61,930 nt of DNA from a virus. The translations under genes and the position numbers were made by a program. Under the pieces are notes generated by a model. That model worked only from the letters and a program-made list of their open reading frames with translations. It did not search any database and was not told where the DNA came from. Of this stretch, positions 1,611 through 42,588 are shown piece by piece. The DNA is taken from IMG/VR virus record IMGVR_UViG_3300013099_000022. One strand, 5' to 3'. Position 1 is the first letter of the stretch; each line of letters starts with the position of its first letter.

Positions 1611-1800
1611 AAGTTACAACAGTAATAGCAAATATTATAAGACCAATTATAACAATTCCACATGTCCAAAGAAATATTGCCAAAGGTAACCATAGTGGAG
1701 ATATTACCCATATCCAAGACCAATCTATAACGTTTATTAATTTTAATGTTATAAATAAAATAGTCAACAATCCCATAAAATTTATTCCTGTATTGTTCAT
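1573..1800 (-). CDS. Small membrane protein (two predicted TM helices)
   Basis: 75 aa, two long hydrophobic stretches (LLTILFITLKLI..., IFLWTCGIVIIGLIIFAITVV). Confidence 0.4.
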   Translation of the reverse strand: MNNTGINFMGLLTILFITLKLINVIDWSWIWVISPLWLPLAIFLWTCGIVIIGLIIFAITVVTYEHYMEKKSAKN

Positions 1801-1804
1801 ATTT

Positions 1805-3232: not shown

Positions 3233-3235
3233 AAT

Positions 3236-3664
3236 TTACTCCGAATATTCTGCCATTGAATCATCACTCTCCCAAACCCTAACAAGATCAAGATACACAT
3301 CTATATTTTTTACTTTAAATATTTCAGTTAAAGCTTTATATATATATTTGCTAAATACTTCTGCAGTAGGATCTTCATTTGCCAAACTAATAAATTCTAA
3401 TTTATAATCTTGTTTTATTATATGATCTATATTTGCACGATCTGTTGGATTTAATACAGTTGCATGATCAAATCTATCTAAGAATGCATTAGTTAATACT
3501 TTTAAATCATGAAAATCTATAACCATATCATTCTTATCAAGTTTTTCAGTTGATAATTGTACTTCTATAACATAATTGTGACCATGCATATTATGACAAG
3601 CACCTTTATGTTTACTTAGTCTATGACCAGATGGTAATTTAAATCTTTTCATTACTTTATACAT
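3236..3664 (-). CDS. queD: 6-carboxytetrahydropterin / 6-pyruvoyl-tetrahydropterin synthase family protein (QueD/PTPS-like)
   Basis: 142 aa; hallmark Zn-binding CxxxHGH motif (CHNMHGHNY) plus conserved acidic/His residues typical of the QueD/PTPS fold. Confidence 0.6.
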   Translation of the reverse strand: MYKVMKRFKLPSGHRLSKHKGACHNMHGHNYVIEVQLSTEKLDKNDMVIDFHDLKVLTNAFLDRFDHATVLNPTDRANIDHIIKQDYKLEFISLANEDPTAEVFSKYIYKALTEIFKVKNIDVYLDLVRVWESDDSMAEYSE

Positions 3665-3688
3665 TATAAGAATTTCCTCCTTTTTAAA

Positions 3689-4144
3689 TTAAGCATATTG
3701 AGCACTTATATATCCATCTTTACCTTTAATAATATTTTCCAGAGTATAAGTAGTACTATTAATTTCAAATTCTTCAGGAAATTTATCAATCACTTCATTA
3801 GAAATGTATGCTTTAATCTTACCATTAGATAATTTTTTACCAGATAAATCAATACCAGCAATAAATTTATTAAATTTATTAATGTCATTAACTACTTTTT
3901 TATTATCACTATTACTATTATTTCCAAATAATATATCATGTTCTGAATCAAATATTTTTAAATCAATCACTTCAATAAAATCATCATATTCATTTAATCT
4001 TATGTAAGTAATATATTTTATATTATTAACAAATTTTTCTTCTACTTTAAAAGTTTTTGTTTGTTCATTAATAGGATTTAAGTAATTAAATATTACTTTC
4101 TTATTATAGAAACTCCCAACTTTTTTTATTATTTTATTTATCAT
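3689..4144 (-). CDS. Hypothetical protein (151 aa)
   Basis: ORF track; ATGA-type overlap with downstream gene indicates operon coupling. Confidence 0.45.
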   Translation of the reverse strand: MINKIIKKVGSFYNKKVIFNYLNPINEQTKTFKVEEKFVNNIKYITYIRLNEYDDFIEVIDLKIFDSEHDILFGNNSNSDNKKVVNDINKFNKFIAGIDLSGKKLSNGKIKAYISNEVIDKFPEEFEINSTTYTLENIIKGKDGYISAQYA

Positions 4145-4413
4145 ATTTTAACGTCTCCATTTAATTCTTTTTTGAAATCTTCATAACCAGAAACGACTCT
4201 TCTATAAAATTCTAATTTGGAACATTCTAATGCACCAATACAATCATTAATAGTTTGATATGACTTATCATGTTTCTTTAAATAATGCTTTATTAAAACA
4301 GTAAAACAATAATTTAATTCACCTGGATGATCTAACATTTGACCAATTTCATATAAATACCCATTAAATTCTTCTCTATCTTCTTGTTTAATATAAGGCA
4401 TATCATTCCTCAC
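4141..4413 (-). CDS. Hypothetical protein (90 aa)
   Basis: ORF track; overlaps neighbours by a few nt. Confidence 0.4.
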   Translation of the reverse strand: MRNDMPYIKQEDREEFNGYLYEIGQMLDHPGELNYCFTVLIKHYLKKHDKSYQTINDCIGALECSKLEFYRRVVSGYEDFKKELNGDVKI

Positions 4414-4714
4414 AATCTATAGATTTAATATCACCCCATGTATCAATTTCTCCAATATGATATACTTTTCCATTTATATGAATTATTTTTTTACCATCCA
4501 AACATTCAATATCACTTAATACTGATTTTGTTGTAATAATTTCATCCGTGTTTGATTCTTGTTTGAATTCTTTAATCAAACTTCCAGTTTTTTGAGCAAC
4601 TTTTTCACTTTCCATAAAATCAAAAAATGCTGGAACAGCAACAGATCCTAAAAAACCTATAATTGATATAGTTATCAGCGCTTCAATTAATGTAAATCCT
4701 TTCTGTTTGTTCAT
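4403..4714 (-). CDS. Type IV prepilin-like (pseudopilin-like) protein; start re-assigned to the internal Met (MNKQKG-FTLIE...)
   Basis: Canonical class III signal: short basic leader MNKQKG followed by FTLIEALITISIIGFLGSVAVP (Gly-1, Phe+1, Glu+5, about 20 hydrophobic residues); C-terminal domain paralogous to 4725-5051. Confidence 0.5.
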   Translation of the reverse strand: MNKQKGFTLIEALITISIIGFLGSVAVPAFFDFMESEKVAQKTGSLIKEFKQESNTDEIITTKSVLSDIECLDGKKIIHINGKVYHIGEIDTWGDIKSIDCEE

Positions 4715-4724
4715 ATTTTTACTC

Positions 4725-5051
4725 CTATTTATTCTCACAATTAACTCCTTGTATATCACCCCATGAATCAATAGTTCCATGATAATAAATTATTCCATTA
4801 ACAATTATAACTTTTTTCCCACTAACACATGTTGAAATTATATTGCTATTTAATGGAATAACTTTTGGTTTATTTTCTCGTTCTACCTTGACTACTTTCA
4901 TTGCATCTCGAAATTCATCCATAACTTTTTCTTTGGTTTCGTTTTCTTTGGTTATAAATTGACTAACCGCAAACGCCACTCCAAAGAATATTAATCCAAA
5001 TACAATTAAATTTATTAAAGCTTTTACTCTTCTCACTGTTGATACATACAT
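4725..5051 (-). CDS. Membrane-anchored paralog of the pilin-like protein (shared C-terminal domain)
   Basis: N-terminal TM helix LINLIVFGLIFFGVAFAV; C-terminal IVNGIIYYHGTIDSWGDIQGVNCE aligns with INGKVYHIGEIDTWGDIKSIDCEE of 4403-4714. Confidence 0.5.
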   Translation of the reverse strand: MYVSTVRRVKALINLIVFGLIFFGVAFAVSQFITKENETKEKVMDEFRDAMKVVKVERENKPKVIPLNSNIISTCVSGKKVIIVNGIIYYHGTIDSWGDIQGVNCENK

Positions 5052-5060
5052 ATTTGTCTC

Positions 5061-6383
5061 CTAATATTGAGCTAAAACAAATTTATCTAATTGATTTAAA
5101 TTATTTTGAACCTCAACTAATTTATCATTTAAATCTTTAGTATCAGTTTTAAAAGTCAATAGTCTTTGAATTCTATATTTAGCTATTAATTCTTTAACAA
5201 TATCTTCTGGAACTTTGCTTTTAATAGATATATCTTTAATAACATAAGGTAATTCTTTTTTAGTTAATTTAGATCCTTTTTTACCTATAACTTCTACTAA
5301 AGGATCTTTAATTTTATCAAGATAATCCATTTCAAGAATAGAATCATTAATTTTAACTACTTCAGATGTTAACATCCTTTTATTAGCTTGAGTATACATA
5401 TTATAAGTATTTATAAGCATATCATCAATAGATGTTACCTTAACATTTTTTTGTTTATCAACTGTTATTGTTTCAAACGATACAGAACCTTTAAGAGCAG
5501 ACTTAACATTCTTGGTTAACAAGTTAAATATTTTTTGTCTATTTCTTTGTTTTAATACTGTAAATATAATAGTTGTTCCTGTTTTACCAGTTGAAGAATC
5601 AATAAACCCAACATCTGCATTTGTCAATTGTTTTTTAATTGGAGCTTTATTTAGTATAGATTCAAATCTTTTTCCTGGAGGCCATGACTTAACTATAATT
5701 TTACATTGTGCATTACTAACACTAACAACACCATTTAAATCAATTTTAGCTTTTCCAACATTTAATAATTGTTGTAAATCAGCTTTAGTTGCTGTTATTT
5801 TACAATCTGTTTTTGGTTGTATTATAGGTTCTGGAGTTTTCTTATTATTTAATAACCATAACAATCTTTTCTTTAAATCTTCCATCTCAAAACAAGGAAT
5901 ATAAGTTCTATAACCAAACCCTATACCTTGTGTATATTCATTACCCATTAAACAAAATGGATATTTGGTTGGAAGATAATCTGGTTCATCATCTAATTCA
6001 CTTTCTGACCATGGAACATGTTTAATTAAATTAAATGCCATATCAATGGTGTCTTTTGACAATTTAGCTTCAGTGTATCTTGATGCCGCAGCACCCAATG
6101 GATCCACACCAAAATTAGTACCCCAGTTACCCTGACCTGTTATAAATCCCTGCTTTACCATTTGAACTATTGTGCCATACGCTCCGGAATGTGGATGTAA
6201 TTTAGCCATACACGTTCCTTCAATTCTAGCACTTTTCACAAACTTTTCTCTAGCAATCCAATATGCAGTCAATAAAATTCGTCTCTCAACTGGTTTTAAA
6301 CCATCCAAATCTAATGGGAGAGAACGAAAATTATTAACATACAAACCGTACCTTCTATAAGCTTGAGGTACTAATTTATCCAT
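5061..6383 (-). CDS. Type II DNA topoisomerase, GyrA-like breakage-reunion subunit (T4 gp52-like)
   Basis: DGLKPVERRIL near N-terminus, KSARIEG...HPHSGAYGTIV, AAASRYTEAKL with catalytic Tyr in RYTE context; 440 aa like T4 gp52. Confidence 0.85.
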   Translation of the reverse strand: MDKLVPQAYRRYGLYVNNFRSLPLDLDGLKPVERRILLTAYWIAREKFVKSARIEGTCMAKLHPHSGAYGTIVQMVKQGFITGQGNWGTNFGVDPLGAAASRYTEAKLSKDTIDMAFNLIKHVPWSESELDDEPDYLPTKYPFCLMGNEYTQGIGFGYRTYIPCFEMEDLKKRLLWLLNNKKTPEPIIQPKTDCKITATKADLQQLLNVGKAKIDLNGVVSVSNAQCKIIVKSWPPGKRFESILNKAPIKKQLTNADVGFIDSSTGKTGTTIIFTVLKQRNRQKIFNLLTKNVKSALKGSVSFETITVDKQKNVKVTSIDDMLINTYNMYTQANKRMLTSEVVKINDSILEMDYLDKIKDPLVEVIGKKGSKLTKKELPYVIKDISIKSKVPEDIVKELIAKYRIQRLLTFKTDTKDLNDKLVEVQNNLNQLDKFVLAQY

Positions 6384-6386
6384 ATA

Positions 6387-6695
6387 CTATTCCTTTCTAG
6401 TTTTAACTACAAATTTTATATTTTGTAATTCTTCATCCGTTTCTTCTCTATTTCTAAAATATTCTGTTAAAAAATTCTCTTTTTTAGATTCCAACACTTC
6501 TCCTATATAAACATCCTTAATATAAACATCAAATAAGAATTCATTTTTAATCTCTTCCCATACTTTTTTATATTCTTTATTGAATCCACATTTTGAACAT
6601 TTAATTGTTTTAAATTCAATAGAATTAGAAAGTTTTTCTTCACACTCATCATATCCACATTCTGGACACTTAATATAACCCATCATTGATCCCAT
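6387..6695 (-). CDS. Small zinc-ribbon protein between topoisomerase subunits
   Basis: CPECGYDEC...CSKCGF two CxxC pairs; position analogous to T4 gene 60 region. Confidence 0.4.
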   Translation of the reverse strand: MGSMMGYIKCPECGYDECEEKLSNSIEFKTIKCSKCGFNKEYKKVWEEIKNEFLFDVYIKDVYIGEVLESKKENFLTEYFRNREETDEELQNIKFVVKTRKE

Positions 6696-18032: not shown

Positions 18033-18788
18033 TTATCTTGTTGCTCTCCAATCCTTACTTCTTACACTTGCTTTATCTGCCGCAGCAAATTTAGCTTTAT
18101 TACTTTTTAATTTTTTAGCAACTGCTGCTTTTTTAGATAATTCTTTACCTCTTTTGTATTCATTCCATTTTCTTTGTCCAGCATATTGTACTTGTTTTAA
18201 TGAATGTTTTAATCCTCTTTTACCTGGTTTAGCAGCCATAGCAGCTTTTTCTTGACTTCTACGTTTTTGAGTTGTAGTCTGACCTTTTGTTGGAGATGCT
18301 TTAGTTTTTTTAGTGCCAGATATAGCAGCTTTTTCTTGACTTCTACGTCTTGCAGTAACTGCATCAGTTTTCTTTAAAGCTTTTTTCTTTACCATTTTAT
18401 CATATGCAGCAGTACTTGCTTTATCAGCAGCAGCAAATTTAGCTTTATTTTTTTGCATTTTTTTAGATTGTCTTTTTGCTTGGAAATCTTTAAGAGCTGT
18501 TGATGCACTATCTGTATAACCTTTAACTTTAGTTTTAGCTTGTTGTCCATAATCTGTAGCTTTAGCTTTAGCTTGTTGTCCATAATCTTTAGCTTTACCA
18601 ACAGCTGCTTTAGCTTGTTTTGGATTAGCAGCAGCATAACCACCTGCAGCAGCTAATGCAGCACCAGTAAGTATTTTACCTTTATGGTCTCTCCAAACTT
18701 TTTTAACTTTATCCCATATTTTACCTTCTTCTAGTCCATGTAAATAATTTTCTAATAAACTCATAATATACTCCTTCTTGATTAACAT
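18033..18788 (-). CDS. Lys/Ala-rich basic repeat protein (histone H1-like composition) with conserved N-terminal domain shared with 46350-46760
   Basis: N-terminus YLHGLEEGKIWDKVKKVWRDHKGKI is nearly identical to that of ORF 46350-46760; internal direct repeats (NKAKFAAADKAS x2, RRSQEKAA x2, DYGQQAK x2) visible in both protein and DNA. Confidence 0.55.
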   Translation of the reverse strand: MLIKKEYIMSLLENYLHGLEEGKIWDKVKKVWRDHKGKILTGAALAAAGGYAAANPKQAKAAVGKAKDYGQQAKAKATDYGQQAKTKVKGYTDSASTALKDFQAKRQSKKMQKNKAKFAAADKASTAAYDKMVKKKALKKTDAVTARRRSQEKAAISGTKKTKASPTKGQTTTQKRRSQEKAAMAAKPGKRGLKHSLKQVQYAGQRKWNEYKRGKELSKKAAVAKKLKSNKAKFAAADKASVRSKDWRATR

Positions 18789-18811
18789 AATTTAATATTT
18801 GTTCTATTTAT

Positions 18812-19183: not shown

Positions 19184-22100
19184 TTATCTCCATATCATCA
19201 TACTAATAAAATAACTATTTAATAAATCTCTAACAGGTGATGATTTTGCTGTACGATATTTAGCATGACCTGTTTGTATAATATCTGATAAAATTTCATT
19301 CTTTGTTATATGATCATCAGATAACGGTCCAAAAAATTCAGCAAGTAGATTTGGACAATTATAACTAATAAAAGAATATGTATCCAATTCACCCATTCTT
19401 TGACCACCTTCTCTTTTTTTACCAGCGGTTGGTTGAAAGGTTTTACTTACAACTGGACCAGTACTTCTAGCAGCTAATTTATCTTTAGCTATATGTTCCA
19501 ATTTTAACATATACATATATCCAACAGGAACTTTACTTTTTGTTTTTGTATTATATTCTGGTAATTTTAAATTATAACCAGCTTTAAGACCTAAGCTTTT
19601 TAAAGCAGCTAATATTTCTTTATAAGCTGGAGCTTTAAATGGAGGTATTAATATAGTCATAGATCCAGAATCTTTAACTTGTTTCATAAACTCTTTAAAT
19701 TTAGTATCTGACATAGCTCTAAAACTATTAATCAACTTTTTACTAAATTCTTTATTTTTTGTCATATCAAGATTAGGAAGAACTTTATTTAATAATGCTA
19801 TAACTTTTGTTTTATTATTTAATTTAAGTATTTGTCTTCCAAGTTCTTTAGATATAAGTCCAGTATACATTTCATATAATTGACCAACATTCATACGACC
19901 AACTACTCCAATAGGATTTAAAATAATATCAACTCTATCTCCAGTAGTAGTTCTTGGCATATTTTCTTCTTTTTCAATAAGAGAAACAATACCTTTAGCG
20001 CCATGTCTATTAGTTAATTTATCACCAATACCAACAGGAAGTTCTTGTTCTAGTTTAAATTTAATTAAAACACCTTGAATGACTTCTCCTTTATATATAA
20101 ACTTTTCTTTAGGTTTTAAACCATATCTAGATCTCGTTCTTTTAGTTAAAGCATCTAATTCTGGAAATTTTCCTTCTTTTAAATTATTAAATACTTCTAT
20201 ATCAACAATTTTACCACCAGGAGATTTTTTAATCATATGACCAGAAACAACTTCAACCCCTTCCTCTTCCTCATCAAAACCAATTAATTCTTCAATCTCT
20301 CCAATACTCTTTCTTAATAATGGTTCTCCTTTTATAGTCTCAGCTCCTAATTTATTTATAAATACAACTCTGTCATCTTTTGCTATTTCAACTTCTTCAA
20401 CTATACCATGTAATGAATTTAGAATTCCTTCTTTTACTATTCTTTCAGATATAACAATTCCATCCTCAAAGTTAAAACCTTTATAAGGCATTAAAGCAAC
20501 ACACATACTTCTTCCAAGAGCAATAGATCCACCAGTAATACATGATCCTTCAGCTATTATACTTTTATATTTAACAACTTGACCAACCTTTACAGTAGGT
20601 TTAAATACACTTAATGTATCCTTACCAGATCCTGATCTTAAATGAACTGGTGTTATTGATATAACTTTATTACCACCAGTACTACATTTAATAGAAATAT
20701 CATCTTTTGTTACCCTAGTAATCTTTCCATTACAAGGAGATTTTTTGATAAAATCATCAGACAAGACACTTGTTAAAATTGATTCATATCCTGATTGAAT
20801 CATTGGTATTTCTGGGTTTCTTAATGGTACAGCTTGTCTCATTTGACTACATCCAAACATAACCCTATTACCATCGTTATTTTCAACAAATGGTATTTGA
20901 GCAGCTGTTGTAGATAAAAGTCCAGAATTTTCACCTTCTTTTTTATCTTTAGTTTGAATAATACCTCTCGCTGATGTTATGAAAGCATCAACAGTTAATT
21001 GCTGTACAATACCAACATTTTCACCTTCAGGTGTATCAAGTGTATCAATATTTCCAAACATAGAATCATGAACATTACGACCTTCATTTTGTATAGCTTG
21101 TTTATCAGGTATACCTCCAATTGCTTTACCAACAGGAGAAACTCTTGTTTTAGTAGCCATTTCTTCTATTGGATTAGCATACTCCATATCAGCTACAATT
21201 TCTGAATTTATAAAATCGCTTAATACTTTAGTTTGAGATATAGAAAATATAGCTTTTTTATTGCCAGATAATACTTGTTCTTTATATTCTGTGTGAGCTG
21301 CTAAAATTTGCTTTTGTGCTAGATGAACAAGAATCTCTGAATTTCTTATTCTTTGATTTGATATATCATTTCTTTTTTGTACAAATCCTTCAACTGCTTT
21401 AGATGACATATATTTCATAATCAAATGTAATTCAGATGGTAATTGTTTATTTATTAAAACTTGTTTAGCTACAGGATCCACAATATTCTCTAAATTTGAT
21501 TGTATTAAAAATGTTGAATTAATACGACCCGCTATTTTAATAATCAAATCATTAAAATATTGTTTAGTTAAAAACTCTGCTTTTAAATTATATGAACTAA
21601 TGTTGGAATGAACTAATGATTGAATTAATTCTTCTTTTAATTTTGTATTGATATTTTCAAATAAAATCCATTGGTTATCGTCAACTTTAACGGTCCATTT
21701 AACCTCTTTATCAGGTTTCTCGTTTGTTATCTTATACCTAATATCATATAATTTCAGTGTCTCTTTAAAACCAAAACTAAAGGATAATAGAACCAATAAA
21801 GGAACTTTATATGATCCAATGTATGCTTCTAAATATTCTTCTCTTTTTGTTCTTTTACTCCAAATATGGAATGTAGAATAACTACTTTCAAACTTACTAT
21901 CATATTTTTTAGGGAATGTTATTGGACATAAAACTAATTGATTAATAAGACATTTTTTCTTACCATTAATTTGAAATGTTCCATCATCTGCTATATTAGG
22001 AACATCTAATAAAATTTCATGTTCTCTTTTAAATTTATCAACCATGGTAATTTTTATAGTACTAATATTTGATGGAGATAAATCCCCTCTTCTTATAGGT

Positions 22101-23275
22101 TTTTTAACAATATTAATAGTTTTAAACTTTAACGGAATATTTTTTGTTTCTAAAACCTTAAAAGAATTCACAACATCTTTCTTTAAATTAGTTTCAAAGT
22201 CTATTTTTCTTTTTTCAAAAATATGTTCAGGTGATTTATTACCAACTGCATTAGAAACATTTGATAATTGTATAACTAAATCTTCTGCTGTGGTTTCTGT
22301 TTTTTTAGGTTGTAATAATTCATCAGCATATTTTTTATCAATAACTTTTAGAGCAGCAGTTTTTTTATTTTCTGGAATTTTTGAAGTCGTTTTACGAGAT
22401 TTTCCCATATCGCCAGTTGTTCTATATAATACAGATGCTGTTGCAATATCTTTAGCGTCATTATTAGTTATATCATTATTATGAGCTTTTTCTAAAGTAT
22501 TTGGATTTTTCTCAAAAAACTTTTGTATTGATTGTTTAAATTTATTTTTGTTAGAAGGTGTTATATCATCTTTAATTTTTTTAATTACTGTATTGGTCGC
22601 AGTATTTATTTTATTTTCAAGTTCTTCATCATCATCAATAATTTTAATATTTTTAAGAAATAAATTTATTCTATTGAATTTAATAGATCTATCTTTCATT
22701 AATAGTCGATATCTAGATGAATTATCCCCAATGGTATTTAGTATCAAATGATCATAGTATAATTTATTTTTCTTTAATTCTATAACAAATGGAAATATTT
22801 TTCTATCAATATATTTATTCATACCTTTAGTTGCATTGGTACTATACATAAAAATCTTTTGATAATTATTAGGAAATGAACTAAATATTTTATCAATTAT
22901 ATTTTTTAATATAAAACCACCACGAGCTCTATAATTTTTTAATTTATATGCATTATCTAATATATTTAAAAAAGGTGTTAAGTCATACATAAGATTTTGT
23001 TTTTGAGGTATTGATTGTGTAGAACTAGAAGCTACCAAACCATACGCCTTATATGTTTTTTTAAGTTCTGGTGACATAAAGCTATATGGAATTTTTGTTT
23101 TAGGAACGATAACTTTTTTAACATCCACTCTTTTTAAATTTAATTTAGAATAATCATCAACTAATGTTGAATTTTCACTAAAGTAAAGTATAATGAAAGG
23201 ATTCTTGGAATCTTGTGGAAATCGTATCCCATTAACAACATGTGTAAATGGTTTAAGCGCTTTAAATTGAATCAT
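19184..23275 (-). CDS. Multisubunit RNA polymerase beta subunit homolog (full length, 1363 aa)
   Basis: C-terminal conserved beta motifs: ILNPIGVVGRMNVGQLYE (cf. NPLGVPSRMNIGQ) and GGQRMGELDTYSF (cf. GGQRFGEME); length matches bacterial beta. Confidence 0.8.
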   Translation of the reverse strand: MIQFKALKPFTHVVNGIRFPQDSKNPFIILYFSENSTLVDDYSKLNLKRVDVKKVIVPKTKIPYSFMSPELKKTYKAYGLVASSSTQSIPQKQNLMYDLTPFLNILDNAYKLKNYRARGGFILKNIIDKIFSSFPNNYQKIFMYSTNATKGMNKYIDRKIFPFVIELKKNKLYYDHLILNTIGDNSSRYRLLMKDRSIKFNRINLFLKNIKIIDDDEELENKINTATNTVIKKIKDDITPSNKNKFKQSIQKFFEKNPNTLEKAHNNDITNNDAKDIATASVLYRTTGDMGKSRKTTSKIPENKKTAALKVIDKKYADELLQPKKTETTAEDLVIQLSNVSNAVGNKSPEHIFEKRKIDFETNLKKDVVNSFKVLETKNIPLKFKTINIVKKPIRRGDLSPSNISTIKITMVDKFKREHEILLDVPNIADDGTFQINGKKKCLINQLVLCPITFPKKYDSKFESSYSTFHIWSKRTKREEYLEAYIGSYKVPLLVLLSFSFGFKETLKLYDIRYKITNEKPDKEVKWTVKVDDNQWILFENINTKLKEELIQSLVHSNISSYNLKAEFLTKQYFNDLIIKIAGRINSTFLIQSNLENIVDPVAKQVLINKQLPSELHLIMKYMSSKAVEGFVQKRNDISNQRIRNSEILVHLAQKQILAAHTEYKEQVLSGNKKAIFSISQTKVLSDFINSEIVADMEYANPIEEMATKTRVSPVGKAIGGIPDKQAIQNEGRNVHDSMFGNIDTLDTPEGENVGIVQQLTVDAFITSARGIIQTKDKKEGENSGLLSTTAAQIPFVENNDGNRVMFGCSQMRQAVPLRNPEIPMIQSGYESILTSVLSDDFIKKSPCNGKITRVTKDDISIKCSTGGNKVISITPVHLRSGSGKDTLSVFKPTVKVGQVVKYKSIIAEGSCITGGSIALGRSMCVALMPYKGFNFEDGIVISERIVKEGILNSLHGIVEEVEIAKDDRVVFINKLGAETIKGEPLLRKSIGEIEELIGFDEEEEGVEVVSGHMIKKSPGGKIVDIEVFNNLKEGKFPELDALTKRTRSRYGLKPKEKFIYKGEVIQGVLIKFKLEQELPVGIGDKLTNRHGAKGIVSLIEKEENMPRTTTGDRVDIILNPIGVVGRMNVGQLYEMYTGLISKELGRQILKLNNKTKVIALLNKVLPNLDMTKNKEFSKKLINSFRAMSDTKFKEFMKQVKDSGSMTILIPPFKAPAYKEILAALKSLGLKAGYNLKLPEYNTKTKSKVPVGYMYMLKLEHIAKDKLAARSTGPVVSKTFQPTAGKKREGGQRMGELDTYSFISYNCPNLLAEFFGPLSDDHITKNEILSDIIQTGHAKYRTAKSSPVRDLLNSYFISMMIWR

Positions 23276-23622
23276 TATTTATCCTCTGGATAGCTATCTA
23301 ATTTTTCAAATCCATTTTCTTTTAATATTGTTGCTAAATCATTACCATCTGGTAAAGTTAATGAAGCTTCATATCTTCCATATATTCCAAGTTTTGATGA
23401 TTTTATTATAACATCTTTATATTCTATTAATGATTTAACAAAATTAGTACATCTAAACCCATGTTCTGCTTCAGATGATGTCTTTGGTCTCCATGTTTCA
23501 GGTGTATCAATTTCTGTTAATCTAAACCTATGTTTAATTGTAATACTAAATCCTACATCAACTTCTGCATCAAAGGTATCACCATCAACAACTCTTGATA
23601 TCATTGCTTTATATTCATACAT
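23275..23622 (-). CDS. Staphylococcal nuclease (SNase)-like thermonuclease
   Basis: VVDGDTFDAEV ... RLTEIDTPE motifs characteristic of SNase fold; 115 aa. Confidence 0.6.
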   Translation of the reverse strand: MYEYKAMISRVVDGDTFDAEVDVGFSITIKHRFRLTEIDTPETWRPKTSSEAEHGFRCTNFVKSLIEYKDVIIKSSKLGIYGRYEASLTLPDGNDLATILKENGFEKLDSYPEDK

Positions 23623-23634
23623 AATTTATTCCCT

Positions 23635-24357
23635 TTATCTATTTTTATAATTACTGCTTCCAAGTCTAGATGTTCTACCTCGTTTTTCATCAACCAAAGT
23701 TCCTGTAAGAACCTTTTCAATAATTGAAGGTTCATTTCTTTCCTCTGAGATAAGTCCAGTTTTAATTGATTCATTAATATTTTCAAATGCTATTCCATTT
23801 ACAAACCCTTCTGAGAATACTATTTTCTTTAAATTAATCAATATCGGATCCCACTTTCTTCCTAATCTTGCTGGTATTTGAACATCCTTTTTATCTCTTA
23901 AAACTTGAGAACACATAGTTTCCAAATGAACTGAATCCATATTAGATAATTTACCATATACAGCAAATAATTTTCTATAAAGATGATCAGCATCTTTTAA
24001 TATTTCTCTACCACCAATAAGTCTTTCAACATAAGAAATTTGTACTGATGATTCCGAAGCTTCAGATGAAACTTCTAATATTGGAGAATTTGCTTCATAT
24101 TTTAATTTGATATATTCTTTATCCATTCTTTCTATTTCATAAACAAATAAATTAACAGTATAATCTAATGTTATATCAAATATTTTTTTATTATACTCAG
24201 CTTTTGCTAATAATGATTTAACCCATATTTTTTTATCTTCTCTTTCAGATATCTTTAAATTAGTATTATCATAATCAGACATATCAATTGTTAGAACCAT
24301 CGGTTGAGTAGTAAATAATTGTTGTCCTGTTTGTTTTAAAAAATTATTAATCTTCAT
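23635..24357 (-). CDS. Hypothetical protein (240 aa)
   Basis: ORF track. Confidence 0.45.
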   Translation of the reverse strand: MKINNFLKQTGQQLFTTQPMVLTIDMSDYDNTNLKISEREDKKIWVKSLLAKAEYNKKIFDITLDYTVNLFVYEIERMDKEYIKLKYEANSPILEVSSEASESSVQISYVERLIGGREILKDADHLYRKLFAVYGKLSNMDSVHLETMCSQVLRDKKDVQIPARLGRKWDPILINLKKIVFSEGFVNGIAFENINESIKTGLISEERNEPSIIEKVLTGTLVDEKRGRTSRLGSSNYKNR

Positions 24358-24359
24358 AT

Positions 24360-24692
24360 TTACCCTTTACAATTTTTAGAACATTTCTTTTTATAACCAT
24401 CTTTTGTTCCTATAAATGGTAATACTTTACCGCATTCACATAAAGCTCTCCCATTATAACAATTCATTACATTATAAACTCTTTCTTTGAATGAAGATGA
24501 TTTAGGTAAGTAGTCTGTATATTTATATAAAGCATCATAAATTCTAATTGAATTTATTTTTATTTTTTTGGAAGCACCTCTTAATCCATCAGGAAAATTT
24601 TCTTTTATATAAATTGACACTATTTCTCTATTCATAAATTTACCTCTTTTATTTTTCCAATCCAGATAATGGATCATTATTAATAATATCAT
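24360..24692 (-). CDS. Hypothetical protein with C-terminal Cys cluster
   Basis: CECGKV...CSKNC; overlaps 5' end of neighbour in the ORF track by 44 nt, so the true start may be internal. Confidence 0.35.
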   Translation of the reverse strand: MILLIMIHYLDWKNKRGKFMNREIVSIYIKENFPDGLRGASKKIKINSIRIYDALYKYTDYLPKSSSFKERVYNVMNCYNGRALCECGKVLPFIGTKDGYKKKCSKNCKG

Positions 24693-26988
24693 CTAACATA
24701 TCACGTTTTACTAAAGATACTGCTCCACCTGTATGAAAAGTTTTCATTATTAATTGCGTGCCTCTTTCTCCAATAAGTTGAGCAGCTAATATTCCAATAT
24801 AAGGAGTTTGATGTCTTTGTAATAATTTACCATAACAAGTATGACATATTTTTTCAGACTTACAATAGATAGGAGTTCTTATACTAGCTATATCACCAAC
24901 TTTAAATTTAGCTCTTTCAAATTCCATCAATTTCCCGTTTTTAATAACAAACCTTCCTGTAAATCTTTTAATTAAAACATCATTAAGTTTTATGTTTAAT
25001 GTTTTTGTTGTTTTACAATCTTTTATACGAGGGTCAAGTTCTACTGTATTTAATAAATAAGCTAATTTTCTTGACATATATCCTGTTTCAGCTGTATTAA
25101 TAACTCTATCAATAATACCTTTTCTTGCTCCTTGAGAGGCATCAAAGTATTCTCTATTAGATAAACCATCAGCAAATGACCCTGATATAGGATCTAAAAC
25201 ATTACCGTCAGGATCAGCGATAACACCTTTTGCAACTAGTATTTGCATTGGTTGACCCCATCCCTTAGTAGACCCTGAATTAGCAAGATCTCCAAATCCT
25301 GTATTGTCTAAATGCTTTTCTAATATTTTTTGAGCTTCCTCTATTAGAGTTTGAGCTTCCTCTGGATCTGCTGTTTTTAATTTTTCTTTAATCTTTAAAA
25401 CCGAGGCTGGTAATTCAAAAGTATCTAAGCTCATAGATGGAGCCATGATGGTAGCCCATTTAAATCCAACTTCTTTTAATTTATCAACAACTATTTTAAT
25501 AATATCATCACCATGTTTATTATAAGTCTGTTCAATCTTTGAGTTAATTGTTTTTTTAGTTGCTTGTGCTTCCATATAACCCATATCTTTTGGAAAGCAA
25601 CTATTAACAATAGCTTTACCCATTGTTGTTTTTTGACCTCTATATTTAACTGCTATATACGGTTCGGTTGCATTTTCAATATCTTCATTAGATACTGCTA
25701 ATGGTGACCCTGTTGGTTTTTTATCTTTTGTAATAGTATATAACCCAGCCCATATTTCTTTTGATAAACCAAAAATAAACTCAGAAGATGATGTTCCAGA
25801 AGTTAGTTTCATCATTCTTGTTCTTGCTTCATCTTGAGCCTCATCTGTTAATGGATGATATACAGCCATTGTATCGCCATCAAAATCTGCATTATGAACA
25901 CCAACTTGAGTAGTAGACATAAGCATTGTATCGCCTCTATGTAAGACAGGAAAATAAGCTAAATAACTTTGAGTATGTAAAACTGGATCCCTTTTTACTA
26001 CTACAACACGACCCATCATTGAAACTTCTGTTTGTATAAAGAATAATTCATAAAGATTTTCTGGAATTTTATCTCCTTCTTTAATACCTTTCATTACTCT
26101 TTTAACAGATTCAGTTGAAAGTTCCATTCCATTAAATTCTTTGATACCTTTTTCTAAAACATCTTTATCAACTTTACCAGAATATAATAATCTGTTCATA
26201 ATAAAAGGTTCAAATAAGCTAATAGCTAATCTTAGTGGTAATCCAACTTCATTGATTTTTATTTTTGGATCAGGTGTTATAACAGATCGACCAGAAAAAT
26301 CAATACGTTTTCCTAACATTTGATCTCGAATAATACCTTTCTTTTTACCAATCTTTGATCTAATATAATTATCATGATCCATAACTGCTAATTGCATAGA
26401 ATAATTTAATAAATCATATAACGGACCAGAACCAGAAGATCTTAATTGAGAAGCCTTTCTCATAACAGAAATATATACATCATTTAATTGATCATCCATC
26501 CTATTACCATCTTCACCTTTTATAGAAGGTCTTAAATCTGGAGGAATTACAATAATTTTATCAATAAACATTGTGTTGTTTTTAGTTTCTTTTTTAATGA
26601 GTTTAATAAGCTTTTTTCTTAATTCAGTTCCACCTCTCCAATTTATACTAGGAAATAATTTTATAAACTCTTTCATCCCAGTAACACCTTTATTGTTTAT
26701 CTCTAATATACCATCTTTATCTAAAATAAAAGATTCTTCAGTAGAAATAAACTTTTCTACTCTTCTATCTATTTGTAATAATATTCTATACATAGCAGGA
26801 TGAATAGCGTAACCATATAATTCAAAATAAGAGAATATAATTCTTCTATCTGGCGAACCATCTGGTCCAAAAATGTCTTCACTAAACAAACCTTCTTCAT
26901 GAAAGTCACCAGATTTAGTGGTAGTGATCATAGATGTTACTGGTTTAAGATTTTTACAAAAACTTTTTGGATTTAATAATCTTAACAT
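24649..26988 (-). CDS. Multisubunit RNA polymerase beta-prime subunit, N-terminal fragment (split beta-prime)
   Basis: Catalytic NADFDGD motif present; N-terminal ...EDIFGP motif; ends at AAQLIGERGTQLIMKTFHTGG (bridge helix/trigger-loop start), so the C-terminal roughly 40 percent of beta-prime is not encoded here. Confidence 0.85.
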   Translation of the reverse strand: MLRLLNPKSFCKNLKPVTSMITTTKSGDFHEEGLFSEDIFGPDGSPDRRIIFSYFELYGYAIHPAMYRILLQIDRRVEKFISTEESFILDKDGILEINNKGVTGMKEFIKLFPSINWRGGTELRKKLIKLIKKETKNNTMFIDKIIVIPPDLRPSIKGEDGNRMDDQLNDVYISVMRKASQLRSSGSGPLYDLLNYSMQLAVMDHDNYIRSKIGKKKGIIRDQMLGKRIDFSGRSVITPDPKIKINEVGLPLRLAISLFEPFIMNRLLYSGKVDKDVLEKGIKEFNGMELSTESVKRVMKGIKEGDKIPENLYELFFIQTEVSMMGRVVVVKRDPVLHTQSYLAYFPVLHRGDTMLMSTTQVGVHNADFDGDTMAVYHPLTDEAQDEARTRMMKLTSGTSSSEFIFGLSKEIWAGLYTITKDKKPTGSPLAVSNEDIENATEPYIAVKYRGQKTTMGKAIVNSCFPKDMGYMEAQATKKTINSKIEQTYNKHGDDIIKIVVDKLKEVGFKWATIMAPSMSLDTFELPASVLKIKEKLKTADPEEAQTLIEEAQKILEKHLDNTGFGDLANSGSTKGWGQPMQILVAKGVIADPDGNVLDPISGSFADGLSNREYFDASQGARKGIIDRVINTAETGYMSRKLAYLLNTVELDPRIKDCKTTKTLNIKLNDVLIKRFTGRFVIKNGKLMEFERAKFKVGDIASIRTPIYCKSEKICHTCYGKLLQRHQTPYIGILAAQLIGERGTQLIMKTFHTGGAVSLVKRDMLDDIINNDPLSGLEK

Positions 26989-26991
26989 ATT

Positions 26992-27684
26992 TTATTTCTT
27001 CTTTTTTGCTTTTTGAATTTTATCTTTTTGTTTTTTAATTTTCGCTTTTAAAATATCTTTTTTAGTTGGATCTTTTTCAGCTTTAAATTTTTTATATAAA
27101 CTTTTTAATCCTTTATATAATTCATATGCAAGAACTGTTCCTCCAACACCAGCCAATGATCCTCTCACAATACCCATTTCATGAGATTTTTTAAGAGCAC
27201 CTTCCACCGCCTCCTTATCCACTACTCTAAGTTTTTCATGAAATAAATCAACATGTTCTTCATTTTTTCTCATAATACTATTCAATTGCATTTTTCTATT
27301 AAAACGTTTGGTAGATTTTCCTTTTAATACAGCTTGACTCATTGTATTAGGAACTTCTTTAGAATATTTAGCGTGTAATTTTTTTAATTGAATTATAGCT
27401 CCTGTCATATCTCTTTCACGAGCTATTTCTGATTTAGCCATTCCTTTTGCTAACTTTAATGAGAAGTTAATCATTTTTGGACATTTATAACCATATCTAT
27501 TACATATAGGAAATATAGTATGATCAGATCCAGTATCAATAGATAAATAACAACCAGGATTTTTTTTAGAATCTTGTTGAACAAATTCTGGAGTTAATCT
27601 ATCAACATCATCATGATAAGTGATTGGTGAAATTAAATCATATGCTTTTCTAAATAATTCGTTTAATACTTTAAAATTTTCCAT
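26992..27684 (-). CDS. Hypothetical protein with Lys-rich C-terminal tail
   Basis: 230 aa; GGAGAG RBS about 9 nt upstream of the ATG. Confidence 0.45.
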   Translation of the reverse strand: MENFKVLNELFRKAYDLISPITYHDDVDRLTPEFVQQDSKKNPGCYLSIDTGSDHTIFPICNRYGYKCPKMINFSLKLAKGMAKSEIARERDMTGAIIQLKKLHAKYSKEVPNTMSQAVLKGKSTKRFNRKMQLNSIMRKNEEHVDLFHEKLRVVDKEAVEGALKKSHEMGIVRGSLAGVGGTVLAYELYKGLKSLYKKFKAEKDPTKKDILKAKIKKQKDKIQKAKKKK

Positions 27685-27714
27685 AACATATTACTCTCCA
27701 TATTATTTACTTTA

Positions 27715-27733
27715 TATTTTGTTCTAAAAAAAG
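27715..27733 (-). promoter_or_regulatory. Upstream motif TTATATTTTGTTCTAAAAAAG (minus-strand reading CTTTTTTTAGAACAAAATATAA), recurring promoter-like element
   Basis: Near-identical copies at 37699-37717, 39611-39629, 45722-45739 (plus 45750-45761), all 25-60 nt upstream of minus-strand start codons. Confidence 0.35.
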
Positions 27734-27750: not shown

Positions 27751-27793
27751 AAAAAGGGTAGCTTATATTTACTATAAGCTACCCTTTTATTTT
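27751..27793 (-). terminator. Rho-independent terminator hairpin (GGGTAGCTTA-loop-TAAGCTACCC) flanked by A5 and T-runs
   Basis: 10-bp perfect stem read directly; lies just downstream of the stop of gene 27792-29258. Confidence 0.55.
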
Positions 27794-29258
27794 AAAAGTC
27801 CAAATCTATTAAATCAGACAATTCTTTTATTTTATCATCTAATTTACCAGAAAATAACAAAGTATAAAATTTAACCATGTTATTTTCTATTTTAGATAAT
27901 GGTATTCCTCCAAATGACTTTCCATCAAATATGTTAAAAAAGTTAACCCTTGAAGTTCTACCAACAAAATAACTCATTATCTTATAAGGTAATATTTTTG
28001 TTTGAAATCCAAAAAAGTTATTTGTTTTATCTTGTATATTAATAAACCCAGATGAATCATTAACATTTTTAATTTTATAAGTTGTTGCTACTGCTGGAGA
28101 AGATGTTGGGTAAAAATTTAACATTGAGAACATATCTGAATATTCATTCTTAAATACTTTATATAATAATTTTTGCAAATATACAGAAAGAACCATTGAA
28201 TGTTCTGGTGATAATGTTTTAAAATGAAAATAAGGAATATTAGTGATTCTTGATAGTAATGGAAATACTAAACAATCACCCAAAGGAGAAATATATTCAA
28301 TATCTTGAACTCTTTGTTGGAATTCTCCTAAGTTTTTATCAGCTTCTTCATTGTCATCAACAGTCATCGGAGTCATTTTATCAATTTCTTTATAAATATA
28401 TTCATATGCAATACCCTTTAATCTTCCAAGAGTATCATTATAACTATAAGTTTTTAAATTATCAACATTCATTCCATGAATATCTTCTGTTGATATAGAA
28501 TCATCATAAACAATTGTTTTCTTATATACACTTCTTAAAAACCATTTAACTGATTCTTCAATTACTCCAACAAAATATGTTATTGGATTTTTATCTTCTT
28601 CACATAAAATAAGAATTGAATTCATTATAAAATTAAATATTTCAACTGTATGTACATCAATAGACTTACACTGAATCATTTTGATATATTCCCACATATA
28701 TCTATCAGTAAGATTATATCTATATACTTTTGTTTTTATAATATTGAATATTTTAAAAACAACATCTGTATTCATGATTTCTTCAACCATTTCATTATAA
28801 ATCTTTTTATGTACTGAGTTTTCTAATACAATATCAGATCTAATTGAAATAAAAGAATATAGTTTTAAATAGCCAGATGTTACTAAAATTTTCTTTATTT
28901 CTTCTGGTTCAAATAAAATTGTTCCTTTTTTAGCTTTACTTTTATCAACAAATACAGAATAATCCATATTTTCGATTTCAAAATGTTTTTCAATATATTC
29001 TTTTAATGTATTAATATTTTTAGTTAAATATGTTATATTATCTTTAGGATTATAATCTTTAACAAAATCAAAGAACCATTTTTCAAATTCTTCCCCGAGA
29101 TTATCATTTACATGTTTAACAAAATCAGTAACTATATTAAATTTATTAGTAACAGAAGAGGATTTAAGATTTAATTCAACGACTTCATCGCCTAAAGTCA
29201 TATTCCATTTTTTTTGTTCAATTTTTTTAAAGTCTAAAGACATTTTGTTTCCTTTCAA
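27792..29258 (-). CDS. Hypothetical protein (488 aa)
   Basis: ORF track; no recognisable motif. Confidence 0.5.
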   Translation of the reverse strand: MKGNKMSLDFKKIEQKKWNMTLGDEVVELNLKSSSVTNKFNIVTDFVKHVNDNLGEEFEKWFFDFVKDYNPKDNITYLTKNINTLKEYIEKHFEIENMDYSVFVDKSKAKKGTILFEPEEIKKILVTSGYLKLYSFISIRSDIVLENSVHKKIYNEMVEEIMNTDVVFKIFNIIKTKVYRYNLTDRYMWEYIKMIQCKSIDVHTVEIFNFIMNSILILCEEDKNPITYFVGVIEESVKWFLRSVYKKTIVYDDSISTEDIHGMNVDNLKTYSYNDTLGRLKGIAYEYIYKEIDKMTPMTVDDNEEADKNLGEFQQRVQDIEYISPLGDCLVFPLLSRITNIPYFHFKTLSPEHSMVLSVYLQKLLYKVFKNEYSDMFSMLNFYPTSSPAVATTYKIKNVNDSSGFINIQDKTNNFFGFQTKILPYKIMSYFVGRTSRVNFFNIFDGKSFGGIPLSKIENNMVKFYTLLFSGKLDDKIKELSDLIDLDF

Positions 29259-37651: not shown

Positions 37652-37736
37652 AACATCTTCCCCTTTTTAAATTAACATAAAATTTAGTATTCATTTTATA
37701 TTTTGTTCTAAAAAAGAAGTATATTCAGCATCAAAC

Positions 37737-39585: not shown

Positions 39586-39646
39586 ATTGTACTCCTTTTT
39601 TTACTTTAATCTTTTATATATGTTCTAAATAAAATAATAATACCCT

Positions 39647-40989: not shown

Positions 40990-41690
40990 TAAGTATTCCT
41001 TTTTAATATTAAATTTATATCTATAGTATCTAAATCATACTCTAAATATTTTATTAAGTCTTTTAATTTATCATCAATTTGTTCTAATTCATCATTAATT
41101 GTTTCTAAATTAATTTTTTTTAATAAAAATTCATCAAATTTTGTAATTGGTTTAATTTGTTTTAAATCAGTTCGTTTAATTAATTGGTTCATTAATTTAT
41201 TTTTACCAATCTCTTCAATTTTAATAACATTACTTTTTTCTTTAAATACCCCAATTAATATTTTTTTATACATTTTAATAAATTCATCTATTGAAAAATG
41301 TGTGGTGTTTACCATCCAGCAAATTTTAGGATGTCTAATAATAAAAATATTATAAAATATATTAGGTGGTAACTTATTATTTAAAACCCAGTCAAACCCA
41401 CCTGGTTTTACAACAAAATTATAATTAGGAAATTCTTTTAATAACAAATTAAACAAATTTAAAAAATAATTACCTTTAAATATCTCTAATGATTCAATAT
41501 CAGGTGTTATTTTATTTAACCATTTTTTACCAATTTGATATTCTATTTCGTCCTTATTATCTTTTAAATGATCTGGGGATATATCTATCCATTTATAATT
41601 ATTTTCTTTTTTAAATAAATTATAAACTATTGTTTTACCAGAATTAAAACTACCATGTAAAATAACAACTTTTTGATTAGATTTTTTCAT
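40989..41690 (-). CDS. P-loop kinase-like protein
   Basis: Walker A ILHGSFNSGKT near N-terminus; 233 aa; no further family assignment possible. Confidence 0.4.
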   Translation of the reverse strand: MKKSNQKVVILHGSFNSGKTIVYNLFKKENNYKWIDISPDHLKDNKDEIEYQIGKKWLNKITPDIESLEIFKGNYFLNLFNLLLKEFPNYNFVVKPGGFDWVLNNKLPPNIFYNIFIIRHPKICWMVNTTHFSIDEFIKMYKKILIGVFKEKSNVIKIEEIGKNKLMNQLIKRTDLKQIKPITKFDEFLLKKINLETINDELEQIDDKLKDLIKYLEYDLDTIDINLILKRNT

Positions 41691-42588
41691 AATTAGTAGA
41701 AGTCCTATTTATTCTTTCCTTACTTTTAAATTTATTGTTATAAATAACAATATCATTTTGATCTTTTCTTTGATCGCAATTTTTACATATATAATTAGTT
41801 TGATTTAATGTATTATTCTCATGATGTTTTTTTAAATCTAAAAAAGGTTTATCATTAAATATATCTTCCATAGTATGATTTAAAAAATTCCCTAATAACA
41901 ATTTTCCATTATAATCAAAACAACACATATTAACTGTGCCATCAACTTGTATTTGATATGGACTATTCCAAGGTCTTCCGCAAGTTGATTTTACTATATC
42001 ACCTTTTCTAAATTTAAAAGCATCTACCCAATTATGAGGTTTCCACATTTCAATTGTTGCATAATCATCATATTTTTCTTTAATTAAATCAATTTGGTCA
42101 TCATTAATTCCAGGTATAATATCAAATGTTAATATTAAATTTATATTTGTTTCATTGATAATATAATCAATATTCCATAACACTTGTCTAAATTGGTATA
42201 AAGGAGCTTTAGTTATTATATGATATGGTTTATATAAAACTGAATGTAAACTAATTCTTATATCTTCAACACCCACCTCATTTAAAAAATCTACTCTTGG
42301 GTAAGGTAAATAATAACCATTAGATAATATATGAATTTTAAATCCACATTCTTTTGCATATTTTATTTTTTCTAATATTTGCCAGTCTACAAATGCTTCA
42401 CCAAAACCAGAAATTGTAATATTGGTTATGTTAGGTAATTCCTTTTTAATTTTATCAACAATCAAACAAAATCTTTCTAACGACATTTCTTCTTTTTTAC
42501 GAACAAATTTTGTGGAATGAGGACAAAATATACAAAAATAATTACATATTGTACATGTTTCTATTCTTACTTCATTTGTATTTAGCAT
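41677..42588 (-). CDS. Radical SAM enzyme with C-terminal SPASM/twitch-like Cys cluster
   Basis: CTICNYFCIFC (CxxxCxxC cluster) near N-terminus; additional Cys pairs (CGRPW...MCCF..., CKNCDQ) in C-terminal third. Confidence 0.7.
   Translation of the reverse strand: MLNTNEVRIETCTICNYFCIFCPHSTKFVRKKEEMSLERFCLIVDKIKKELPNITNITISGFGEAFVDWQILEKIKYAKECGFKIHILSNGYYLPYPRVDFLNEVGVEDIRISLHSVLYKPYHIITKAPLYQFRQVLWNIDYIINETNINLILTFDIIPGINDDQIDLIKEKYDDYATIEMWKPHNWVDAFKFRKGDIVKSTCGRPWNSPYQIQVDGTVNMCCFDYNGKLLLGNFLNHTMEDIFNDKPFLDLKKHHENNTLNQTNYICKNCDQRKDQNDIVIYNNKFKSKERINRTSTNYEKI

Follow-up and report, generated by a model that had tools for sequence, protein, structure and literature searches.

We analyzed a 61,930-nt stretch of viral DNA, IMG/VR virus record IMGVR_UViG_3300013099_000022 (hereafter the window), with a focus on positions 19184-26988, where genes of a multisubunit RNA polymerase (RNAP) are found. 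An earlier note on this DNA had proposed a phage-encoded enzyme of this kind, and the Pfam matches of both large subunits, beta and beta-prime, agree with that proposal. The G+C content of the window is ∼27%, and the minus strand holds almost every gene, including all genes of the RNAP region. The features of the region, with lengths in amino acids (aa) or nucleotides (nt) and positions in the window, are as follows.

19184-23275, minus strand: beta subunit, 1363 aa, unsplit; Pfam Rpb2_6 (E 1.4e-49) and Rpb2_3 (E 6e-9).
23275-23622, minus strand: SNase-like nuclease, 115 aa, between beta-prime-C and beta; Pfam SNase (E 3.5e-7) and phrog_452 endonuclease (E 1.8e-23).
23635-24357, minus strand: beta-prime-C, 240 aa, which supplies an SI3-like insertion domain together with trigger-loop helix 2 and the conserved regions of the C terminus.
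24360-24635, minus strand: small91, a 91-aa zinc-ribbon open reading frame (ORF; CxC...CxxxC) inside the beta-prime break, with its own Shine-Dalgarno (SD) sequence, AAGAGG.
24649-26988, minus strand: beta-prime-N, 779 aa, with the clamp, the double-psi beta-barrel (DPBB) bearing NADFDGD, the bridge helix and trigger-loop helix 1, from Pfam and Protein Data Bank (PDB) alignments.
26992-27684, minus strand: orf230, a small conserved protein and possible winged-helix factor; weak SarA profile match (E 0.02).
27711-27728, minus strand: promoter-like motif TTTAGAACAAAATATAAA, which begins 41-44 nt upstream of the orf230 start.
27752-27788, minus strand: terminator-like hairpin that separates orf488 from the core operon, with a 16-bp perfect stem, a 5-nt loop and then a U run.
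27792-29243, minus strand: orf488, 483 aa, a predicted sigma-like promoter-specificity subunit and structural homologue of AR9 gp226 and phiKZ gp68.

In this jumbo-phage genome, the RNAP locus lies among T4-like replication and nucleotide-metabolism genes. The same RNAP gene arrangement was found at 100% identity in JAPOGY010000001.1 (269,986 bp), JAPOGZ010000001.1 (246,859 bp), and two independent Logan assemblies, and because these four independent assemblies agree, an assembly artefact is excluded. As shown in the list, beta-prime is distributed over two ORFs, and the larger of these, beta-prime-N, is readily recognized. It carries VHNADFDGDTMAVYHPL at residues ∼364-380, and with it the Mg-binding NADFDGD motif of the DPBB on which the earlier note had based its identification. 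This motif stands in a genuine RNAP context, with Pfam matches to Rpb1 domain 2 (E 7.5e-28) and domain 5 (E 2.2e-21); Rpb1 domains 1 and 3 scored 30.5 and 22.6 bits, which is under the Pfam gathering cut-offs. The protein aligned with bacterial beta-prime in the PDB (E 1e-58) and with residues 219-984 of Escherichia coli RpoC, and its bridge helix GARKGIIDRVINTAETGYMSRKL and trigger-loop helix 1 AAQLIGERGTQLIMKTFHTGGA correspond to the bacterial elements (E. coli residues 718-940). Alignments to bacterial beta-prime begin at residue ∼123-136, and the part before this point is unaligned. At the other end, the Rpb1_5 match of beta-prime-N alone covers profile positions 1-101 of 267, and the ORF does stop within the trigger loop, as the note had claimed. 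Its last residues are not exactly ...TFHTGG as stated there; the ORF extends 24 residues beyond this motif, through AVSLVKRDMLDDIINNDPLSGLEK (...NDPLSGLEK), to a TAA stop.

The note had further concluded that the remaining ∼40% of beta-prime must be encoded elsewhere or be replaced by something else, and it counted the 240-aa ORF that follows 291 nt downstream as one of two small ORFs. Taken alone, this ORF indeed does not look like beta-prime, as it returned no Pfam match and no significant PDB sequence match, and its identity was settled only through its homologues. Among 95 relatives in a large protein collection, six are longer, carry PF04998 (Rpb1_5) and are continuous over the junction, running from ...TFHTGGAV...NDPL... 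directly into the sequence that starts the 240-aa ORF. In a comparison set of 20 related IMG/VR loci (L-numbered), beta-prime is a single ORF of ∼1,000-1,005 aa in 11 and is split in nine; all nine are broken within the same few residues after NDPL, and every one of them retains a start codon there, either ATG or GTG. When the two window ORFs were joined, Rpb1_5 was matched over positions 1-248 of its 267. A family profile gave a collinear, weak match to Staphylococcus aureus beta-prime residues 1049-1177 (E 0.65), and residues 2-217 of beta-prime-C aligned over positions 12-239 of the 241 in phrog_2926 (E 2.4e-5). The N-terminal domain of beta-prime-C has a fold like the bacterial SI3 trigger-loop insertion (sandwich-barrel), and trigger-loop helix 2 and regions G′/H are present in this separate ORF.

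The fused orthologues, the extension of the Rpb1_5 match and the alignment of the break thus indicate that beta-prime is complete in two adjacent ORFs of 779 and 240 aa (1,019 aa together). The portion absent from beta-prime-N amounts to 24% of this compact protein, not to ∼40%, and it is neither missing nor replaced. Orthologues that join both ORFs as one continuous protein refute the idea of a C-terminal region placed elsewhere in the genome or substituted by an unrelated protein, to which, in view also of the SI3-like fold and the full-length phrog_2926 match, we assign practically no probability. The break itself falls at about E. coli beta-prime residues 950-962, where SI3 starts (the family profile aligned to RpoC up to residue 984), right after trigger-loop helix 1 (TFHTGGA...NDPL) and right before the SI3-like domain. 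Bacterial SI3 forms an insertion within the trigger loop and is exposed on the surface (PMC11077087, PMC10120043); the window break is at the N-terminal edge of the SI3-like domain.

The two beta-prime halves are separated by a gap of 291 nt that contains 14 in-frame stops. Ribosomal bypass or read-through of the gap was considered and rejected on account of these stops. Nearly all of the gap is occupied by small91, which is read in a frame different from that of beta-prime and begins 13 nt past the stop of beta-prime-N; 2 nt separate its end from the ATG of beta-prime-C. It comprises 91 aa from the SD-preceded ATG, or 110 aa as the longest ORF. With spacers of only 13 nt and 2 nt and a separate ribosome-binding site for each gene, the three genes probably share a transcript and are coupled in translation. 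No Pfam or PHROG match and no nuclease domain was detected in small91, which consists of the zinc-ribbon module alone. A profile search of 1.84 billion representative proteins recovered 418 relatives, many of which are proteins of 300-900 aa that repeat the module two to five times. When 10 such multi-module proteins were scanned, six carried DUF7487, and two of these six additionally had a sub-threshold match to the PD-(D/E)XK family REase_MTES_1575. Judged by these sequence relationships, small91 is a solo copy of the module repeated in putative homing endonucleases of the DUF7487 type, with or without PD-(D/E)XK.

Relatives with a split beta-prime carry different material at the same point, with inserts spanning 5 to 963 nt. 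L006, L007, and L024 have a homologue of small91 at this position as well, and in L023 a homologue follows beta-prime. Small hydrophobic, Lys-rich ORFs occupy the gap in L006 to L009; L014 has a 293-aa ORF there and L020 a 295-aa ORF, with a motif that we take to resemble PD-(D/E)XK endonucleases. In L015, the gene is split without any cargo, with merely 5 nt from stop to start. We conclude that the beta-prime gene was fractured at a probably insertion-tolerant point, and that the gap now serves small mobile-type genes as a landing place. As a separate observation, a mobile-looking module composed of a hydrophobic Gly/Ala-rich segment and a Lys-rich tail (..EKDPxKK..) occurs at varying positions within the operon. 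It forms a separate gap ORF in L006 (3428-3760), L007 (5611-5997), L008 (5736-5996), and L009 (5684-5986), is joined to the orf230 C terminus in the window (26992-27200) and in L007, and is possibly present also at window positions 18033-18788.

Because introns and inteins often carry homing-endonuclease-type genes, we considered whether a self-splicing element (a group I or II intron or an intein) could restore a full-length beta-prime. One relative provides a case that points in this direction, although at the NADFDGD site and not at the trigger loop. In L022 (IMGVR_UViG_3300037468_000575, 2037-6670), beta-prime is broken exactly after NADFDGD by an apparent split intein: the N part (SCLCSIIY...DHSLIV) extends to 3554, the C part starts at 4612 and finishes with ...GYDLTVEDNYTFASSDGVFVQD directly before TMAIFHP, and a free-standing 356-aa DUF7487 ORF lies between the halves at 3541-4611. 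By its sequence, this locus looks like a "fractured gene" at the RNAP catalytic site. For the window, however, a search against Rfam gave no match at the gathering score in the whole window, and none even at E ≤1 in 23200-25000. As 276 of the 291 gap nucleotides are taken up by small91, in another frame and with its own SD sequence, there is no room for a ribozyme core. Both ORF ends match the fused orthologues residue by residue, with no extra intein blocks, and the L015 gene is split by 5 nt alone. We regard splicing at the window break as highly improbable. The fracture found here can instead be compared with the fractured genes of phages, with free-standing homing-endonuclease genes, that Dassa et al. 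reportedly described in 2009; in Aeromonas phage Aeh1, nrdA is said to be split by mobE. The likeness lies in a conserved essential gene cut at a conserved point, with a small mobile-type ORF between two halves that are both kept. The window differs in that it has no intein and that small91, lacking a nuclease domain, would be at best a remnant or satellite module.

A different role for small91 must also be weighed, namely that it was recruited as an accessory subunit and serves, for example, as a zinc ribbon acting in trans to make up for a zinc-binding domain that seems to be absent from this beta-prime. The ORF is kept in its homologues, which are intact (90-91 aa), share 52-59% identity and have an invariant CxC...CxxxC pattern, and its ratio of nonsynonymous to synonymous substitution rates (dN/dS) is 0.42-0.47. 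Its probable translational coupling to beta-prime-C would also suit such a role. Moreover, we see by eye no four-Cys zinc cluster in the N-terminal segment FGPDGSPDRRIIFSYFEL of beta-prime, which belongs to the unaligned part, when it is set against what we take to be the E. coli sequence. Nevertheless, small91 is absent from most family members, including every fused one and several split ones, it lies outside beta-prime in L023, and other phages have unrelated genes at this point. The relatives of small91 form modules within large DUF7487/nuclease proteins. An accessory subunit is thus an unlikely explanation, and we favor the reading of small91 as cargo of a fractured gene.

In contrast to beta-prime, the beta subunit is encoded by one ORF, as had been claimed from its C-terminal signatures. 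The ORF holds DIILNPIGVVGRMNVGQ and GGQRMGELD, and both the motifs of the C-terminal DPBB and clamp connector and the N-terminal GTFxxNG region are present. A family profile matched bacterial beta over profile positions 421-1334 (E 4e-99), corresponding to bacterial residues 128-1322, and residues 390-748 aligned with residues 63-450 of AR9 gp105 (hhalign, probability 87%, E 4e-6). Alignment to the bacterial and AR9 subunits, which the earlier note had proposed as a check, shows that the core is present. The protein is laid out as a conserved N-terminal domain (∼1-195), a variable linker rich in Lys, Asn, and Thr, and the core from ∼390 onward, so that the ∼390-residue N-terminal extension is extra compared to bacterial beta and AR9 gp105. 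The N-terminal domain (residues 1-205) had no PDB or Pfam match, and the linker was likewise without a detectable relative. Between beta and beta-prime, the note had listed an SNase-like nuclease and two small ORFs; the nuclease is there, and the two ORFs are small91 and beta-prime-C. The stop of the SNase-like gene overlaps the beta start codon. This gene is limited to the clade of the window (L006, L007, L008, and L010) and is absent in the other relatives. The site represents a second insertion point with other cargo elsewhere; for example, L019 has an SNF2 helicase there, and L006 carries an HNH-like ORF together with others.

We then compared the locus with known phage RNAPs. No close relative of the RNAP region, of orf488 or of beta-prime-C was found in 50,697 GenBank phage records by megablast and tblastn, and the best matches of beta-prime-N in these records were only 25-28% identical. 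The multimeric-RNAP-encoding Caudovirales (mReC) of Weinheimer and Aylward (2020, PMC7481178) are the described lineage that fits: the supplement of that study includes contigs of the relatives L008, L010, and L017, and its dataset includes Ga0164313_10000962. This Joint Genome Institute contig (L112) was obtained by scanning the metagenome collection for exact matches, and over 4.3 kb it shares 99.8% identity with the left flank of the window genome. The type "a" entries have a beta of 1,358-1,386 aa and a beta-prime of 1,002-1,017 aa, and type "b" sets have a beta of ∼1,000-1,050 aa and a beta-prime of ∼900-975 aa; some contigs hold both types (PMC7481178). With 1363 aa for beta and 1,019 aa for the joined beta-prime, the window proteins are sized like the "a" entries. 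The background is T4-like in both cases, by a gp23-type capsid in PMC7481178 and by replication genes in the window. By contig listing and subunit sizes, the window RNAP is a "type a" enzyme of this known lineage. For L008 and L010, PMC7481178 records the "b" set alone. The main text of PMC7481178 uses none of the words split, intron, intein, and homing, and the split form is undiscussed there; the words sigma and promoter are likewise absent from that text. A literature search found no later work treating a split, sigma factor or promoter of the mReC RNAP. The window RNAP is accordingly a member of a described lineage that carries a previously undescribed gene fracture.

A check for a second RNAP set, which the earlier note had advised, gave a positive result outside the window. 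Within it, phmmer and a motif scan detected no second paralogue of beta or beta-prime; a DFDGD in the ORF at 12174-14723 was rejected as a chance match within a vault-protein-like ORF. The contigs of L017 and L024 each carry a second beta-prime (loci L045 and L041), 28-29% identical to the type-a beta-prime. L112 encodes on its minus strand (872-3589) an unsplit type-b beta-prime of 905 aa without an SI3-like domain, followed by a second beta. This type-b protein is 63% identical to that of the L017 contig and 29% identical to the window beta-prime, and its gene lies ∼13.5 kb beyond window position 1. Given the 99.8% identity between this contig and the left flank of the window genome, the window phage very probably has two multisubunit RNAPs, like phiKZ and AR9.

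The presence of a second, unsplit set, in relatives and in the 99.8%-identical contig, raises the possibility that an insertion inactivated the type-a beta-prime and that a decaying pseudogene set is being tolerated. Comparisons among split relatives (65-83% identity) yielded dN/dS values of 0.14-0.24 for beta-prime-N, 0.14-0.22 for beta-prime-C, 0.14-0.21 for beta, and 0.10-0.13 for orf488, all of them rough because dS was high. These values argue against decay and indicate, at the level of sequence, that both beta-prime halves are under purifying selection. Furthermore, every catalytic motif is intact, all nine split loci have retained their start codon at the break, and the split state has been maintained over a clade with 100% bootstrap support. 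We consider a decaying set very unlikely, and the fractured gene is probably functional. In a neighbor-joining tree of beta, split genomes appear in at least three places: the window with L007, L008, and L009 (100% bootstrap), L014 with L015 (100%), and L024 beside the fused L021 (62%).

Upstream of the beta-prime and beta genes lie orf230 and orf488. We confirmed that the ORF at 26992-27684, orf230, is not beta-prime, as the earlier note had remarked; its SarA-like match is weak. In 18 of the 20 IMG/VR loci, the gene that immediately precedes beta-prime is a homologue of orf230. These homologues share a conserved core of ∼140-155 aa, to which the proteins of the window and L007 add a hydrophobic segment and a Lys-rich tail. 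In 16 of the 20 loci, orf488 is directly upstream of orf230 and beta-prime. Its homologues number more than 560 and are uniform in length; the protein lacks a Pfam domain, and no BLAST-level similarity to the AR9 and phiKZ subunits was detected. Its AlphaFold model had a predicted local distance difference test (pLDDT) value of 77.7, and in a Foldseek search with this model the sole match at E ≤0.001 was 7s01_A. We took chain A of 7s01 (463 residues) to be gp226 (464 aa) on the basis of chain length and PMC9209446, where gp226 is described as a sigma-like promoter-specificity subunit. The best structural matches of orf488 are gp226 and gp68. The most conserved stretch of orf488 (159-240, TDRYMWEYIK) aligned, weakly, with gp226 183-263 (SDVVIWTYLK; hhalign E 0.018, probability 2.5%), which is the sigma2-like region bearing the 2.1bis helix. 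One difference concerns Val206, the residue with which gp226 discriminates uracil: its counterpart in the orf488 alignment is a Tyr. On the evidence of this model, orf488 probably gives promoter specificity.

The intergenic region between orf488 and orf230 contains two signals. The hairpin at 27752-27788 has a predicted free energy of −22.6 kcal/mol (stem including A/U pairs; z −7.5), and GC-rich hairpins with T runs occur at the equivalent place in many relatives. The AGAACAAAWWATAAA motif is conserved upstream of the core operon; we found no description of it in the literature searched. An (A)GAACAAA sequence followed by an A/T-rich stretch precedes orf230 homologues in 14 of 16 relatives despite diverged surrounding DNA. 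In the window, exact copies of TTTAGAACAAAATATAAA also occur at 37695-37712 and 39612-39629 (coding strand, intergenic), and near-copies at 45722-45739, 18791-18808, and ∼60973-60980 (minus strand, intergenic). More generally, a (T)AGAACA(A/T)A motif with an A/T-rich stretch starts 17-59 nt before the start codons of the RNAP core operon, the ribonucleotide reductase large subunit gene, the UvsX region and others, and AGAACAAA plus A/T is found upstream of several replication genes of the window. In all, 14 copies of AGAACAAA were counted on the coding strand and none on the other, and five of these copies lie within the 5.9% of the window that is intergenic. We therefore propose (T)AGAACA(A/T)A as a candidate phage promoter class. 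No conserved motif was recognized upstream of orf488. The AACA in AGAACAAAWWATAAA recalls the −10-like element of the AR9 late promoter (AACA-N6-TA on the non-template strand, 3′-UUGU-N6-AU-5′ on the template strand), but the spacings differ. The AR9 early promoters, AAATATATATTAT, were rejected as a model of the motif, to which they bear no resemblance.

The arrangement of the window RNAP was said in the earlier note to differ from that of phiKZ and AR9, and this is correct, since their non-virion beta-prime is split after the DPBB domain (PMC7598289). In the window, beta is unsplit and beta-prime is continuous through the DPBB and the bridge helix and is broken in the trigger loop. Shared with these non-virion enzymes are a predicted sigma-like subunit of the gp226/gp68 family (orf488) and a beta core that aligns with AR9 gp105; neither an alpha nor an omega homologue was seen among the window genes. 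The archaeal A′/A′′ split lies before the trigger loop and is not the break seen here. The same holds for the cyanobacterial gamma/beta-prime split, which is after the DPBB (PMC7598289). The trigger-loop insertion of AR9 has been described as a unique fold (PMC9209446), whereas that of the window is SI3-like. A closer counterpart of the break exists in a virion RNAP: SPN3US gp244 has been described as the C-terminal-most conserved beta-prime region of that enzyme (PMC7598289). gp244 belongs to phrog_2926 (E 1.2e-94), and because beta-prime-C and gp244 both match this family, the two break points are equivalent. Each is a stand-alone protein of 240 aa. A direct hhalign comparison of the beta-prime-C family with gp244 alone gave nothing, so that the link is through the PHROG profile only. 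The phiKZ-like virion RNAP has a further break in beta-prime after the DPBB, its beta is split and the genes are scattered; the window, by contrast, has a single break, adjacent halves and unsplit orthologues. We found no description of this match in the literature searched. A sigma-like subunit, a promoter-like motif and a break point in common with gp244 are thus what our analysis adds to the mReC enzyme.

Taken together, these data make it highly likely that the region is the core operon of an mReC type-a RNAP whose beta-prime is fractured into adjacent 779- and 240-aa ORFs. Read in this way, the core operon (orf230, beta-prime-N, small91, beta-prime-C, SNase, and beta, in this order) appears to be a separate transcription unit, with the terminator hairpin and the AGAACAAAWWATAAA motif ahead of it. 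The two beta-prime polypeptides would probably reassemble non-covalently, by analogy with other naturally split RNAPs. The break point would be a surface-exposed, insertion-tolerant boundary, which would explain why relatives are broken at an identical point with different cargo, and orf488 would set the promoter specificity of an enzyme that may be the counterpart of the non-virion RNAP holoenzymes of jumbo phages. Several points weigh against parts of this interpretation. dS was near saturation (0.75-2.0), which affects the dN/dS values. The deep nodes of the beta tree are weak (21-56%), so that one ancient split with cargo turnover is not separable from repeated splits. The mobility of small91 is deduced from its relatives, because the protein itself has no nuclease domain. 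Finally, the sequence link between orf488 and gp226 is weak and the global template modeling score (TM-score) of orf488 is only 0.35-0.39, and the assignment of orf488 therefore rests mainly on two fold comparisons of a medium-confidence model.

We advance more tentatively, as a proposal that may well turn out otherwise, that the type-a enzyme is the true evolutionary counterpart of the phiKZ/AR9 non-virion holoenzyme, with an AACA promoter read via a 2.1bis-like helix and paired with a type-b RNAP in T4-like phages, and that the recurrent fracture at the SI3 boundary is a snapshot of mobile endonuclease genes breaking jumbo-phage RNAP genes. If so, unsplit, freshly split and cargo-bearing states would coexist here and show a route to the multi-piece phiKZ-like enzymes. 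Where the RNAPs of jumbo phages come from has been called "a mystery," and mobile introns have been proposed to have made the splits (PMC7598289). In the mReC lineage, orthologous beta-prime genes are intact, split by 5 nt, split with mobile-type genes between the halves, or, in L022, interrupted by an apparent split intein; as every state is present, the mobile-element hypothesis becomes testable by comparison. The gp226/gp68-like subunit would connect mReC enzymes to the phiKZ/AR9 non-virion RNAPs, which were excluded from the 2020 phylogeny because of long-branch effects (PMC7481178). The trigger-loop break and the compactness of the enzyme may also be of practical interest for the engineering of split or minimal RNAPs.

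Some other genes of the window deserve mention. An 849-aa ORF on the minus strand (12174-14723) matches the Major Vault Protein shoulder (Pfam E 5e-19) and carries Vault_3 repeats, which is unusual for a phage. A PTPS/QueD-like gene at 3236-3664 (minus strand), and a radical-SAM gene, possibly of the QueE type, just left of the window (L028, 15645-16688), hint at a 7-deazaguanine-type DNA modification pathway. Also on the minus strand, a DAHP_synth_1 (KdsA-like) domain is fused to a methyltransferase beside a radical-SAM/SPASM protein (42572-43957 and 41677-42588), and these represent auxiliary metabolic genes.

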